A stretch of 64,000 bases of DNA from Clostridia bacterium (GTDB taxonomy: Bacteria; Bacillota; Clostridia; CAKSNL01; HGM11501). A program made the translations under genes and the position numbers. The notes under the pieces are model-generated. The model was not told the origin of the DNA and did not search any database. It worked only from the letters and a program-made list of their open reading frames with translations. Where the stretch lies: positions 1 to 64,000 of the forward strand of contig JAZQAZ010000030.1 in NCBI GenBank assembly GCA_045545475.1, in the 5' to 3' direction. Every line of letters begins with the position of its first letter. Position 1 is the stretch's first letter. Below, one piece after another: positions 9,735 through 52,955 of the stretch.

Positions 9735-10424
9735 TTACTCCATATTTATAAGAGCATCTTTCAATTTTTCAACAGCTTTTTTCTCAATTCTTGACACATA
9801 GCTTCTGGATATGTTTAGAATCTTTGCGATTTTTCTTTGCGGTATCTGTTTCCCGTCCTTCAGTCCGTAGCGTAACTCAATAATCATTTTTTCTCTTTCA
9901 TCAAGACATTCTCTTATACTTTCGTACAGCTTTTTCACCTTTTGCTTTTTTTCGTAGCTGTCTTCTATTTCTTCCTCCTCGGAAGGAATAATATCCATAA
10001 GAGTAACTTCGTTACCCTCTTTATCGCTTCCTATACTTTCAGAAAGCGAAACCTCGGAAGGCAGATGCTTCTTTGCCCTTAAGACCATGAGAATCTCATT
10101 ATGAATACATTTAGCAACATATGTGGAAAGCCTGGTTTTTTTATTAGTACTGAATGTATTAATTCCCTTTATAAGGCCAATAGTTCCTATGGATAAAAGG
10201 TCGTCGGCTTCATCGGTGGTCCCTGAATATTTTTTCACTATGTGGGCAACCAGTCTGAGATTATGCTCAATCAGTTTATTTTTAGCTTCTTCATCGTTGT
10301 TTTTCTCATACCTCTCAATCAGCACAGCTTCTTCCTTTTCTGTAAGCGGCTTTGGAAAACTGCCACTTTGCAGGTGTCCCAAAAGAAATATTTTCTGTAG
10401 TAGTGCCAGAATTAAAGCTAACAT
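9735..10424 (-). CDS. sigK: pro-sigma-K sporulation sigma factor, uninterrupted
   Basis: Hydrophobic pro-sequence then SFPKPL; HNLRLVAHIVKKY; ISRSYVSRIEKKA. Confidence 0.92.
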   Translation of the reverse strand: MLALILALLQKIFLLGHLQSGSFPKPLTEKEEAVLIERYEKNNDEEAKNKLIEHNLRLVAHIVKKYSGTTDEADDLLSIGTIGLIKGINTFSTNKKTRLSTYVAKCIHNEILMVLRAKKHLPSEVSLSESIGSDKEGNEVTLMDIIPSEEEEIEDSYEKKQKVKKLYESIRECLDEREKMIIELRYGLKDGKQIPQRKIAKILNISRSYVSRIEKKAVEKLKDALINME

Positions 10425-10426
10425 AA

Positions 10427-10472
10427 AAACTCCTTTTACATATCTTCATGTCATGATATGTAAAAGGAGTTT
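10427..10472 (-). promoter_or_regulatory. perfect 18-bp inverted repeat covering the sigK SD; overlaps a sigE-like promoter
   Basis: AAACTCCTTTTACATATC-N10-GATATGTAAAAGGAGTTT; minus-strand ATA-N16-CATATCAT. Confidence 0.7.
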
Positions 10473-10483
10473 GTCTTATTACA

Positions 10484-11164
10484 TTAAATTTCTCCCTGTA
10501 TTTCTTTTCTCAGCTTAAGAGCAAGACGAGGATTTCTTGTTGTTATATTGAAAATCCCCAGTTCAAGCAATCTTCTTATCTCCTCTTCGCTGTCTGCTGT
10601 CCATGCAGAAAACGTAAGTCCCAGGGATTTAATTCTTTCAAAATTTTCTTTTGTAATCATGCTGTAATGCAAATTTATCACCCGACATCCTTCGGCAATG
10701 CACTTTTCTTCTATCCTTGCGATGTCTCTTTCGTTGTCCGATGAGGGCCAAAGGCTCATCCACAGTTCTCCTCCGAGACTTTCTGTTTCCGTCTTCTTAT
10801 CGTTGCACGCTCCTGTAAATACGGCTCTATCCCCCATGCCCCGAGAATTTACTTTTTCCATTACATAAGGAACAAGCTCTTCCGTCTTTACATCAAAATT
10901 AATTCTCAATTTTTCATATGACATAACAGAATCAAGAAACTCATCAAGACTAACTGAATTTTCAGGATTGCAAACTTCGTCATGGGAAAGATACAGCACA
11001 TCTTTGCTTCTTCTCACATCCACCTCTATCATTTCAGCATCAGACTTTATGGCCTCCATGATATGCTCCCTGCTATTGGGCAATGTATTTTCGCATCCAG
11101 AATGTGCCGTTATTATTGTAAGACCTGCTCTAACTATTTCTTCTGGCGAATATTTCATAATCAT
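10484..11164 (-). CDS. glycerophosphodiester phosphodiesterase family
   Basis: TAHSG, IEVDV, LSHD, AWT and ITT motifs. Confidence 0.8.
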   Translation of the reverse strand: MIMKYSPEEIVRAGLTIITAHSGCENTLPNSREHIMEAIKSDAEMIEVDVRRSKDVLYLSHDEVCNPENSVSLDEFLDSVMSYEKLRINFDVKTEELVPYVMEKVNSRGMGDRAVFTGACNDKKTETESLGGELWMSLWPSSDNERDIARIEEKCIAEGCRVINLHYSMITKENFERIKSLGLTFSAWTADSEEEIRRLLELGIFNITTRNPRLALKLRKEIQGEI

Positions 11165-11167
11165 CCC

Positions 11168-12061
11168 TCAGTTCACTATATCAGCATTATATGAAAATGC
11201 ATCGGTTAAAGATATATCTCCTATCTTTTCGGCTCTTTCTCCCTCAACCAGGAACTGCACCTGGCTTACCTCCGGAAGTCTTGCAAGAGTGTTTACGATA
11301 GAATATACGCAAAGCTCCGAATTTTCTGCCGGAAGTGCCAAAAATTCTTTTGACAGATTCACATAACAGAACTGGTCCTTGGTCTCTATAGATAAAACCT
11401 TTATATCATCGCTCAAAAGAGTCAATCCCTTTGTCGCAGGGCCTTTCATAAGTTCCCCGATAGCCGTTTTCTCAGCCGTTTCGTTATCTTTAATGTCGAG
11501 CATACGCTTCTCACTTATCAGACCGGTTTTATCCTCATTTGCAAAATAAAGTTCCAGTACCACGGTCTGATTTCTACCGATTTCATCCACCGAAATAACA
11601 TTATACATGGAAAGTGCACCGATTTCCTCATCACTCGCCGTGTAATTTAATTTTCTGCCGTTAACCAAAATCTGCACCTTATTTATTCCGTCAATTGCAC
11701 AAAGGGTATTCACCACAGAATATATCGCCATAAGCCTTTCTGCCGGGCCAATGGTTTTTTCAAAATCCTGCGACAAATTAACAGTAACGTTTTTTCCCTC
11801 TAATCTGACACCTAAAAGAGCTGTATCGGGAGGTACGGCCTTTTTGTGTTCAGCCCTGTATGGGCCCTCCAAAAGTTTTTCCATAACGGCATAAACCGTT
11901 TTTTCCAAGGAAAGATTTTCCTCAATGCTTACCGCCTCTTCAACCATGCTCTTTCCGTCATCGGAAGAAAAATACACCGTATACTTTTCGCTTTGCATGC
12001 TGCAACCGGAAAATGCAAAAAGCAGAGTTAACGAAAGCATTAAAATGAATATTTTTTTCAT
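11168..12061 (-). CDS. GerMN-domain lipoprotein (two GerMN domains)
   Basis: Lipobox FSGC; repeated L..GP, VNLS, YSVVNTL and VQILV motifs. Confidence 0.85.
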   Translation of the reverse strand: MKKIFILMLSLTLLFAFSGCSMQSEKYTVYFSSDDGKSMVEEAVSIEENLSLEKTVYAVMEKLLEGPYRAEHKKAVPPDTALLGVRLEGKNVTVNLSQDFEKTIGPAERLMAIYSVVNTLCAIDGINKVQILVNGRKLNYTASDEEIGALSMYNVISVDEIGRNQTVVLELYFANEDKTGLISEKRMLDIKDNETAEKTAIGELMKGPATKGLTLLSDDIKVLSIETKDQFCYVNLSKEFLALPAENSELCVYSIVNTLARLPEVSQVQFLVEGERAEKIGDISLTDAFSYNADIVN

Positions 12062-12065
12062 AATT

Positions 12066-13460
12066 TTACGCCAGCGGAAGGTATATGCGAAATACGCTTC
12101 CTGTGCCCTCCTCACTTTCAACATCTATATGGCCGCCATGCATTTCCACTGCAGAAAGGGCAATGGAAAGTCCAAGACCTGTTCCTCCTGTTTCTCTTGA
12201 TCTGGCTTTATCCACACGATAAAAACGGTCAAAAATTTTACTTATTTCATCCTTTGAAATTCCGATTCCGCTGTCTGATACAGTAAAGATCGCATTATAC
12301 AAATCCTTTTCCAGAAACATTTCAACCTTTCCGCCATATGGAGTATATTTTATTGCATTATCGGTTATGTTGTAAAAAGCTTCCCAGATTTTATTTTTTT
12401 CCATTATCATAAAGATATCACCGCTGCAATTTAAGCTTAAGCGTACGCCCTTTTGCATTGCAATTTTTGTAAGGGAGCCTGCCACGCCTCTTACAATATC
12501 TTTAAGATTGCCGGTTACAAACTTTTTATTTTCGCTGTATTTTGCCGCATCCATTCTGGTAAGATCCAAAAGGTCATTTACAATATTGGTAAGCCTGTCA
12601 ACCTCGTCGTTCATATCGTGCAGGAACTCAGAAACCATTTCAAAGGGAGCATTATCTCCCGCCGCAATAACAGAATCGCATATGAGCTTTATGGAACTTA
12701 AAGGCGTTTTAAGTTCGTGAGATGCGTTTGATACAAATGCGGTTCTTTTCTCTTCCTGCGCTTCAAGTTCTTCTATAAGTGAGTTAAAGCTTTCTACCAG
12801 TTCCCCTATTTCTCCCGTACCTTCAACGTCGATCTTCATCTTATGAGAATCCTTCTGTCCTTTTATTTTCTTTATAAGCCTCTCTATGGGAGCTGTAAAC
12901 AAGCCCGCAAAAATAAAGCTCAAAAGAATCGCAATGGCACAAAGAAGCACAGTAAGGTAATTTATTCTTCTTTCCGTAGCAGAAAGAATTGCCCCGATTT
13001 CATTTGCCGAGGATTCTATATATACCACTCCGCTTACCTCGCCATTTCTTATTATCGGAACGGAGGCTGCAGTTGTTATAACATCTTCGCTTTCCACCTT
13101 ATTATATGTGCTTTCGCCGCAAAGACCGGAAAGAATCATCGGACTAAGACGAACCTTTCCTGTAGAATCCACATAAATATTTTCCGCATTATCATAAATA
13201 ACCACCGCATCCGTGTTTGTTACGATGATGCGGCTGTTATTACCTATCGAAAGCATTATGATGTCCTCATCCATAGTTTTTTCTATTCCGGAAGGAGGAA
13301 CATCCGCTATATCTGTTGCAATAATATTGATTTTAGTCATTAAGTTTACTTTATTATCGTTGTAAAGAGCAGATGACATCGCCGTAAGCATGTACATTCT
13401 TACCACGGTAACTGCAAGCAAAATTATAACGATATAAGTAAGTATAAGACGGTATTTCAT
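12066..13460 (-). CDS. sensor histidine kinase (HAMP-HisKA-HATPase)
   Basis: SHELKTPL H-box, NAIKY, DSGIG, RFYRVDKARSR, GTGLGL. Confidence 0.95.
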   Translation of the reverse strand: MKYRLILTYIVIILLAVTVVRMYMLTAMSSALYNDNKVNLMTKINIIATDIADVPPSGIEKTMDEDIIMLSIGNNSRIIVTNTDAVVIYDNAENIYVDSTGKVRLSPMILSGLCGESTYNKVESEDVITTAASVPIIRNGEVSGVVYIESSANEIGAILSATERRINYLTVLLCAIAILLSFIFAGLFTAPIERLIKKIKGQKDSHKMKIDVEGTGEIGELVESFNSLIEELEAQEEKRTAFVSNASHELKTPLSSIKLICDSVIAAGDNAPFEMVSEFLHDMNDEVDRLTNIVNDLLDLTRMDAAKYSENKKFVTGNLKDIVRGVAGSLTKIAMQKGVRLSLNCSGDIFMIMEKNKIWEAFYNITDNAIKYTPYGGKVEMFLEKDLYNAIFTVSDSGIGISKDEISKIFDRFYRVDKARSRETGGTGLGLSIALSAVEMHGGHIDVESEEGTGSVFRIYLPLA

Positions 13461-13527
13461 TCTCTGAGCAGTTTTTACGCATTTTTTCCAGAAATCTTTA
13501 AATGAAAAATGCCCGCTTCTTTCTTCC

Positions 13528-14211
13528 TTAGTCTTCTTTAAAATAGTAACCTACTCCCCACTTTGTTATGATATAAACCGGATTTGCCGGATCCGGCTCA
13601 ATTTTTTCTCTCAAACGGCGGATATGCACATCCAGCGTTCTTATGTCTGCAGGATAGTCATAACCCCATATAATATCAAGCAGAGCTTCTCTGGTGTAAA
13701 CTTTACCGGGATTTGTTATAAACAAATCAAGAATTTCAAATTCCTTGGATGTAAGTTCAACAGTTTTTCCGTTAGCTGTTGCACGTCTTAAATTATAGTC
13801 AACCTTAAGACCGCCTCTGACTACACTGGTGCTGCTCTTTTTAGCCTGACTCTGTCCGCTTCTTCTTATAATGGCTTTTACCCTTAGCTTAAGCTCAAGT
13901 ATATTGAAAGGCTTTGTGAGGTAGTCATCTGCACCGTATTCAAGGCCCATTATTCTGTCCATATCGTCAGTTTTAGCTGTAAGCATAATTATCGGCACAT
14001 TTGAAAAGTCCCTTATTATTCTGCACACCTCAAGACCATCAATTTTAGGAAGCATAAGGTCAAGAATTATAAGATCTATTGACTTGTCTCTGGCAAGCTT
14101 TACGGCTTCTTCACCATCATATGCCGTTTCAACGTCATAACCGTCCTGTTCAAAATTAAATTTCATTCCTTTTACAAGGAGCTTTTCATCGTCCACTATA
14201 AGTATTTTCAT
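13528..14211 (-). CDS. OmpR/PhoB-family response regulator (WalR-like)
   Basis: ILIVDDE, LDLMLP, GADDYLTKPF, DVHIRRLREKIE. Confidence 0.95.
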   Translation of the reverse strand: MKILIVDDEKLLVKGMKFNFEQDGYDVETAYDGEEAVKLARDKSIDLIILDLMLPKIDGLEVCRIIRDFSNVPIIMLTAKTDDMDRIMGLEYGADDYLTKPFNILELKLRVKAIIRRSGQSQAKKSSTSVVRGGLKVDYNLRRATANGKTVELTSKEFEILDLFITNPGKVYTREALLDIIWGYDYPADIRTLDVHIRRLREKIEPDPANPVYIITKWGVGYYFKED

Positions 14212-14330
14212 TAAACCTTCAATTCCTTTCCACTTTATGCTTATATAGTTATATAATATCACAAATGCAAGCCAACTTCAATATTTTTTTATTAAAAAAA
14301 CAAAAGCGGTGTTAAAACACCGCCTTTGCA

Positions 14331-17732: not shown

Positions 17733-17774
17733 TAAGGGAATATCCCTTGAAACTTAATAAGGGATATTCCCTTA
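17733..17774. promoter_or_regulatory. twin inverted operator, copy A
   Basis: TAAGGGAATATCCCTT-N10-AAGGGATATTCCCTTA between divergent HTH genes. Confidence 0.75.
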
Positions 17775-18319: not shown

Positions 18320-18360
18320 AAGGGAATATCCCTTAAAACAGAATAAGGGATATTCCCTTA
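18320..18360. promoter_or_regulatory. twin inverted operator, copy B
   Basis: AAGGGAATATCCCTTA...TAAGGGATATTCCCTTA; core identical to copy A. Confidence 0.75.
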
Positions 18361-25260: not shown

Positions 25261-25410
25261 AATATGCCTCCATAGAACATGTTTTTATAATTCTACCACA
25301 AAAGTATAAAAAAGTCCACTAAATCATAAAAAACTATTAAAAAGCTGGAGAGTTATTCGTCTTAAACCAAAAGTTATTCGTTATAAATATTTTTAAGACG
25401 AATAACTAAA

Positions 25411-52373: not shown

Positions 52374-52955
52374 ATGATTTATGACTGGAAAACAAACAAA
52401 GAGGAAGCCATTGAAAACGGTATTTGTGAAAAGGAATTTTTCGGAATAACCTGCGTAATACCGGATCCCGATACAGGAGTAGTAAACGGCCACACTTTCA
52501 AGAATTTTCCAAAGCTGGAATTTGCACCCGGCACACTTGTAACCGATTGTACGTTTGAATCCTGCCAAGACCTCACTTTTGATGAGTGCAGAATAAACAA
52601 CTGTATATTTAATAATACAGAATTCCTTTTTTGCAGAGACAGCAACTTCACCAACTGCCGTTTCAGCGATTCTTCCTGTGCAGACGATGTACTTATAAGC
52701 ATCGAAGACTGTAAAATAAGCCATTGCGGTTTCTCCGACATCCGTCTTGAGAATGACGTTTATATGATTGACGGCGTCGGTGACTGCCACATATCGCACT
52801 GCGACTTCTCCAACATCTTAACAACTCGTGAAGACAGAGAAATTATTATCTCGGAAGAAACCAAAGGTACAATTTTCAAAAGAAAGGTCAGATACTTTAT
52901 AACAGACGAAGACACTTGCAAGGGGCTTGACGAAGTTAAATTAATTCATCCCTGA
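52374..52955 (+). CDS. hypothetical Cys-rich pentapeptide/beta-helix-like protein
   Basis: Periodic xxCxF repeats (DCTF, NCIF, NCRF, HCGF, HCDF); GGAGG SD. Confidence 0.6.
   Translation: MIYDWKTNKEEAIENGICEKEFFGITCVIPDPDTGVVNGHTFKNFPKLEFAPGTLVTDCTFESCQDLTFDECRINNCIFNNTEFLFCRDSNFTNCRFSDSSCADDVLISIEDCKISHCGFSDIRLENDVYMIDGVGDCHISHCDFSNILTTREDREIIISEETKGTIFKRKVRYFITDEDTCKGLDEVKLIHP

Follow-up and report, generated by a model that had tools for sequence, protein, structure and literature searches.

In Bacillus subtilis, the sigG gene of the spoIIGA-sigE-sigG cluster is preceded by a hairpin of 20 or more base pairs, which has been suggested to keep read-through RNA from being translated and which cannot form in RNA made from PsigG (excerpt of PMC5942855). 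According to the same excerpt, a separate small leader hairpin of 5 bp lies within sigG's own transcript and dampens translation 2-4-fold. In bacteriophage T4, the genes e, soc, 49 and I-TevI carry a late promoter in the DNA of a hairpin's 5' arm, and their early long RNAs sequester the Shine-Dalgarno (SD) sequence (excerpt of PMC3014915). Sequestration has a 100-fold effect in gene e, late RNAs of these genes are without the 5' arm and are translated, and deletion of the arm de-represses I-TevI (same excerpt). IS10/Tn10 is protected from external promoters, as RNA entering from outside folds over its translation signals (excerpt of PMC13181058).

How clostridia restrain sigK when skin, the pro-sequence or some of the processing pathway is missing is an open question in the excerpts of PMC5025042 and PMC3789822. 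Here we analysed a 64,000-nt stretch of a Clostridia bacterium contig (the window), in which the SD of sigK lies in the arm of a predicted RNA hairpin. We put the probability at roughly 0.7 that this hairpin is an insulator silencing sigK on RNA initiated upstream, by occlusion of the SD and probably also by termination.

The sigK locus, its predicted hairpin and a predicted promoter in the 5' arm

The sigK gene (9735-10424, reverse strand) is one open frame of 229 amino acids without an internal stop. Its product passes the NCBIfam model NF004471 SigK (295.5 bits, cut-off 252) and falls slightly below the cut-off of TIGR02846 (293.7 against 298.65). The 22 residues before the FPKPL motif form a hydrophobic pro-sequence, and no skin-type element with a serine recombinase interrupts the gene. 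The genome also contains spoIIID, spoIVB and an M50 protease gene, whose product may be SpoIVFB-like; BofA was not found with TIGR02862 in this genome, which is 95% complete.

On the same strand, sigK follows a gene string consisting of OmpR-type response regulator and histidine kinase genes (12066-14262), which are the likely source of read-through, a GerMN (Germane) domain gene (11168-12124 as an ORF call; the real start may be lower) and a final GDPD gene (10484-11164), whose stop at 10484 leaves a 59-nt gap to the co-oriented sigK. A sigA-like promoter match stands ahead of the response regulator gene at 14253-14281 on the reverse strand (a consensus match, 9 of 12 with TG). Just above it lies a strong terminator (14329-14300), and the terminator scan detected no other strong one from 14253 to the gap before sigK. 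The contigs of a single metatranscriptome run, in which 0.12 of words matched, have no coverage of 10326-10667.

The gap contains an inverted repeat with perfect complementarity over 18 nt (10472-10455 with 10444-10427), 5 of the 18 pairs being G-C. Read on the sigK strand, the 5' arm (10455-10472) carries the anti-SD CTCC at 10469-10466 and takes in the promoter spacer together with the larger part of the -10 motif. It is followed by a loop of 10 nt (10445-10454), with the predicted +1 near 10446, and by the 3' arm (10427-10444), which contains the whole SD, AAAAGGAG (10430-10437). A U5 run (10425-10429) comes after the GC-closed stem, abuts the ATG and is a possible termination tract. Both the arrangement given in a preliminary description of this DNA, with an intact sigK 59 nt behind the co-oriented string, and its 18-bp repeat with the SD in the 3' arm and a U-run by the ATG were verified in all coordinates.

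The fold of 101 nt around the gap reaches -30.4 kcal/mol (z -6.75; 0 of 200 shuffles). It should be pointed out that perfect inverted repeats are common in the window, where another 18-nt one and six 16-nt ones are found among the 25 longest. These other long repeats are mostly ordinary terminator-like stems, and the length of the sigK stem by itself is unremarkable. Elsewhere in the window, two 16-nt perfect inverted repeats with near-identical arms (17733-17774 and 18320-18359) stand about 590 nt apart and are possible element ends or binding sites; at 25351-25407, repeats are nested, with a single right arm opposite two related left arms of 16 nt each.

As a lock score, we used the ensemble energy required to free the SD within 70 nt of upstream sequence, and genes at 10 kcal/mol or more were called locked, a threshold picked after the first survey scores had been seen. 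Freeing the sigK SD costs 15.6 kcal/mol, which ranks 5th among 1674 crudely called genes with an SD in the host genome (median 2.7). In a scan of 5' ends, SD opening required 14-16.5 kcal/mol for ends at or above 10470 and 1.3-2.9 kcal/mol for ends at or below 10464. Starting from the predicted +1, the cost is about 2 kcal/mol, compared with about 16 in read-through RNA; this drop is partly built in, since a shorter sequence itself lowers the cost. No small stem over the RBS is predicted in the short sigK transcript (about 2 kcal/mol).

A plain intrinsic terminator of the upstream operon would have the same outcome for sigK, differing in mechanism more than in function. The overlap of promoter and SD would then be an economy of space, and SD occlusion a by-product. 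The string has no other strong terminator after its promoter match, as such a reading would have it. However, the stem is AT-rich with a 10-nt loop, rather than GC-rich with a loop of 3-8 nt, it is followed by only U5, and the terminator scan does not list it. We regard this alternative as unlikely. Within the insulator reading, the U-run would make termination likely at the host sigK, but the loop and the AT-rich stem are atypical for it.

A -10 motif of the mother-cell sigma type (sigE/sigK-type), CATATCAT, was assigned to 10453-10460 (reverse strand) by motif and class-wide position profile. Sixteen nt ahead of it stands a sigE-type -35 ATA (10477-10479), which is nearly invariant in alignment A1. 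The predicted promoter fits the sigE pattern, with a -35 ATA, 16-18 nt and a -10 CATAnnnT. A sigE-like -10 in the 5' arm with ATA upstream had been noted in the preliminary description, and the motif proves to be shared, ATA-N15-18-(C/A)ATAnnnT being present in 12 of the 15 family sigK loci. In C. difficile, ATA is the sigE -35 and AC the sigK -35, and the P2 start of sigK was mapped 26 nt before the start (excerpt of PMC3789822). Here, AC at sigK-type spacing is absent before sigK in the host genome, and the predicted +1 offset is consistent with the P2 position. A possible SpoIIID box, TAAGACAAAC (10469-10478, reverse strand), of the kind present at B. subtilis and C. difficile sigK, is a weak lead: it poorly matches the C. 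difficile consensus, and a strict match to the SpoIIID consensus occurs in only 3 of 15 family loci. Because SD opening costs less than 3 kcal/mol for ends at or below 10464, any start from the in-arm promoter would escape the lock.

Across the class, a GCAC-like motif is conserved in sigK promoters at 21-18 nt ahead of the -10, the distance of a sigK-type -35, and a GGAC-like motif stands farther upstream. In the host family, ATA replaces the GCAC-like motif, and sigK autoregulation may thus be lost there.

The stem might also be a switchable attenuator, opened in the long RNA by a protein, a small RNA or a ribosome, with an incidental promoter motif. The upstream stop codon lies merely 12 nt from the 5' arm, and at loci L012 and L017 the in-arm -10 is AATA with a better CATA match further upstream; both points favour such a switch. 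Against it, the -10 motif takes the same place in 283 of 293 sigK loci among the matches listed, locked or not, as called by a lenient motif finder with a distance prior. Moreover, the loop sequence is not conserved, and the Rfam search gave no family at threshold (best SSRC8_2, 22.8 versus 72 bits). We consider this switch highly improbable.

Conservation in the host family and among clostridial sigK loci

The family set consisted of 15 sigK loci, taken from 14 genomes and one metagenome contig. SD opening costs at least 10 kcal/mol at 12 of them, and 14 beat all 12 shuffles of their own upstream sequence, the exception being L012 with 3.6 kcal/mol. The upstream neighbour is co-oriented at 13 loci, its identity varying among GDPD, GerMN and proteins without a Pfam match. 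In a gap-free alignment of four loci, pairing holds in 94.4% of cells, and 4 of the 18 pairs are changed on both sides, a covariation count from four related sequences with the structure derived from one of them. The pairing score of this alignment was reached by 1 of 500 shuffles, and when the register is shifted, pairing falls to 40-67%. When RNAalifold was applied to 14 family sequences aligned with MAFFT, the result was off register and gave just 7 pairs, and the gap-free subset was used instead; a pair table from singly folded sequences is circular (L011 and L007 are mis-anchored) and was excluded as evidence. Judging from the shuffles and the paired changes, the sigK stem is under selection, and the hairpin is real, selected and probably functional. 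The preliminary description had let its reading depend on conservation of the stem, which is now seen together with compensatory changes.

Perfect symmetry across the promoter spacer in the host genome would also suit a DNA palindrome, i.e., a protein operator or cruciform, instead of an RNA structure. However, pairing is kept while arm sequence and spacing vary, and G-U pairs occur on the mRNA strand. Since an operator would keep its sequence, the varying arms argue against one, and this reading has the lowest probability of those we weighed. Sense versus antisense folding energy, used as a strand test, gave no discrimination (locked -4.3, unlocked -4.1 kcal/mol).

For the wider survey, 246 of 351 loci were kept after dropping 47 duplicates, 36 loci without the anchor motif, 15 sigE, 6 with a short flank and 1 startless. 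Scores were first obtained for 241 of the 246; 56 more were tried (28 new ones and 28 of the 36 unanchored), of which 4 went unscored, giving 293 in total. The sample is not random, being made up of similarity-ranked and near-duplicate loci among the matches listed. At least two sigK-like matches were observed in each of the genomes G140, G235, G240, G330 and G497.

Among the matches listed, sigK is locked at 80 of 293 clostridial loci, compared with 3.1% of shuffles, and 109 of the 293 beat all 12 shuffles against an expectation of about 23. At 76 of the 80 locked loci (among the matches listed), the whole anti-SD precedes the +1 that the -10 motif predicts. The other 213 of the 293 matches listed are unlocked, many of them behind co-oriented genes. 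Most clostridial sigK genes being unlocked, the lock is dispensable. The locked or unlocked label changes 32 times on the FastTree tree, so the lock is often gained or lost. Elsewhere in the phylum, outside this class, 8 of 33 sigK loci are locked.

The sequence after the SD bears on termination. At least five T follow it in 11 of the 15 family sigK loci, as a terminator would have it. Outside the family, 36 of 68 locked loci among the matches listed have fewer than five T, and Anaerovoracaceae-like stems pair the SD and continue with TACATA rather than a U-run, which both speak against a plain terminator. The locked Anaerovoracaceae-like loci without a U-run argue that occlusion is selected in its own right.

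Among the matches listed, 59 of 139 sigK loci with a close co-oriented neighbour are locked versus 8 of 82 with a divergent one; the 8 locked loci with a neighbour called divergent count against the insulator. For these calls, small co-oriented DUF1540 genes were recognised post hoc with a single rule applied to every row, which changed 20 rows; the earlier calls, based on ORFs of at least 90 aa, had labelled 18 DUF1540-bearing loci divergent. After kinship correction, the relation of lock and orientation is not significant (21 independent pairs, 2.6 the same way versus 1.0 opposite, median p 0.6), and families split 10 to 5 on lock versus co-oriented neighbour.

The preliminary description had proposed an RNA-structure gate for sigK timing. 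The RNA part is supported by the conserved stem, the promoter motif and the fall in SD cost, and we retain it; the timing part did not survive. A lock bypassed by a sigE promoter cannot delay expression once sigE is active, and the host sigK retains its pro-sequence in a genome with spoIIID, spoIVB and the M50 protease gene. A timing gate might nevertheless stand in for skin excision or pro-sigK processing. In its favour, loss of skin in C. difficile leads to premature sigK activity (excerpt of PMC5025042), and pro-less sigK outside the host family is locked at 35 of 48 loci versus 32 of 226 pro-bearing ones, among the matches listed. Split (skin-type) sigK is locked at only 2 of 18 loci versus 66 of 260 intact ones among the matches listed, but with p=0.26 the idea of a substitute for skin gains no footing. 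Loss of the pro-sequence accounts for just 5 changes on the tree with 1 well-supported independent pair, too few for any test. We judge a timing gate of this kind improbable. Corrected for kinship, the associations of the lock with pro-less sigK and with skin are likewise non-significant, and the raw associations with pro-less sigK, skin and neighbour are leads only.

One such lead concerns pro-less, intact sigK genes with a small DUF1540 gene 65-141 nt upstream, of which 18 of 19 are locked. The DUF1540 gene there has its own SD and a CATAATA-like motif. DUF1540-preceded loci are L063-L069, L074, L075, L079, L081, L085, L087, L102, L110, L113, L115, L156, L173 and L206. In a tentative reading, the Anaerovoracaceae-like lock would shield pro-less sigK from RNA of the DUF1540 gene, whose promoter might be forespore-type. 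In family f40, only 1 of 10 loci is locked, and a PBP gene lies 66-99 nt upstream in most loci.

The same design at other genes

Nineteen genes of the host genome reach 10 kcal/mol. Of the 244 genes that follow a co-oriented gene at a distance of 35-110 nt, 11 are locked, versus 3 of 394 divergent ones (p=0.003), and 11 of the 19 locked genes have at least five T after the SD, compared with 17% of all genes. Terminators are expected in such co-oriented gaps, and both figures also favour the terminator reading.

Promoter-in-hairpin genes were identified at C18:81298, C29:59945, C19:65849, C10:33708, C34:38551 and C14:69793; they comprise ssb-like, spoIVB, dacB-like (D,D-carboxypeptidase), polysaccharide deacetylase, DUF3792 and murA-like genes. 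By eye, mother-cell-type or other -10-like motifs were seen in the arm or loop of the ssb-like, polysaccharide deacetylase, dacB-like, spoIVB and DUF3792 genes. The lock is kept among family orthologues in 10 of 11 ssb-like, 10 of 13 spoIVB and 8 of 11 dacB-like cases; a 14th spoIVB orthologue without flank went uncounted, and in two of the dacB-like misses the start appears to have been miscalled. Of the three spoIVB loci that are unlocked, two, which come from sister species and represent one event, have a divergent neighbour. In C. difficile, one ssb gene and three polysaccharide deacetylases, possible counterparts of the genes here, are under sigE control (excerpt of PMC3789822). The same design with sigA-like motifs is found at an ispE-like kinase gene (C44:12133), an amidohydrolase gene (C23:24584) and an unknown gene (C30:52374, position 52374 of the window). 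Locks were not significantly enriched at host-genome genes with a sigE-like -10 (3 of 131 versus 16 of 1543, p=0.18), the pattern being over-strict and missing sigK itself. As far as sequence comparison tells, the lock design is conserved at the sporulation genes ssb-like, spoIVB and dacB-like. It is not specific to sigK, and it is also seen at sigA-like promoters.

A separate observation concerns sigG, which is split in the host genus: its 5' part, located behind sigE, stops at codon ~97, and the 3' part lies on another contig. In the host genome, the halves are at C34:95446-95745 and C19:61549-62061, outside the window, and loci L343-L351, L409-L418 and L432 belong to the same observation. 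The break sites share a 7-nt core and inverted-repeat arms and look recombination-like; on one side of them or the other lie housekeeping genes and the spoIIAA-AB-sigF operon. Of 12 genomes in the genus, 10 contain the 5' half and 10 the 3' half, and G012 has an intact gene. In G013, the 3' half is directly adjoined by a gene for a large serine recombinase, and the host genome has a similar gene at C18:57640-58989. In G011 and G008, the contig continues for more than 100 kb on the inner side of one sigG half without reaching the other. The assemblies do not distinguish excision from inversion.

Proposed mechanism and comparison with known systems

We propose that the sigA-like promoter of the RR-HK-GerMN-GDPD string would yield RNA reaching the gap, and that this RNA would fold the stem with the whole SD paired, as computed. 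It would then terminate at the U5 run or stay untranslated into pro-sigK, probably both. In the mother cell, RNA from the sigE-type promoter in the 5'-arm DNA would start in the loop, without the anti-SD, and be translated. In this way sigK would be confined to its own promoter, and with it to stage and compartment, and timing inside the mother cell would be left to pro-sigK processing. The host family reuses the device at other genes close behind a co-oriented neighbour.

It is a tentative extension that RNA insulators of this kind are widespread in Clostridia, have evolved repeatedly and are the main sigK safeguard in pro-less, skin-less lineages. Equally speculative is a general form in which a developmental promoter occupies the 5' arm and the 3' arm holds the SD, and which would silence sporulation genes in the wrong cell. 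If this is true for pro-less lineages, it would answer how they restrain sigK although both checkpoints known from Bacillus are missing. Being readable from sequence, such a lock is a directly testable control layer; it predicts which species are able to make sigK early from read-through RNA, e.g., those of family f40, and in uncultured gut Clostridia it shows where internal sporulation promoters lie.

No report of a sigK hairpin was found in the literature searched, and the excerpts of PMC5025042, PMC3789822, PMC517825, PMC3442830 and PMC6343041 describe none. The mechanism is old and known from T4 and sigG, and sigK appears to be new as its target, no report having been found.

The known systems, as far as the excerpts describe them, differ from the sigK lock to varying degrees. 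Skin likewise bars sigK outside the mother cell, but it acts by DNA excision through a serine recombinase, which is absent here, and it is not significantly anti-correlated with the hairpin. The IS10 lock protects the transposase of a mobile element and is not developmental, whereas a sporulation sigma gene is locked here. The small sigG hairpin, too, acts on a sporulation sigma gene by pairing its RBS, but it forms within the gene's own transcript, and no such stem is predicted in the short sigK transcript. The preliminary description had taken that 5-bp leader hairpin as the precedent; it forms within the PsigG transcript, and the true match is the separate large hairpin (excerpt of PMC5942855). 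Like the latter, the sigK stem is long, precedes a sporulation sigma gene and would be unformable from the gene's own promoter. It differs in concerning the mother-cell sigK, in facing RNA of a two-component string rather than of a sporulation operon and in its U-run; moreover, the design turns up here in many lineages and before several sporulation genes. The T4 genes e, soc, 49 and I-TevI share the promoter in the 5' arm, with an effect that was measured in T4 and is computed from sequence here. In T4, the design serves the temporal programme of a phage and involves the phage's own sigma factor, whereas at sigK it would serve a bacterial developmental sigma factor and is combined with terminator-like tails.
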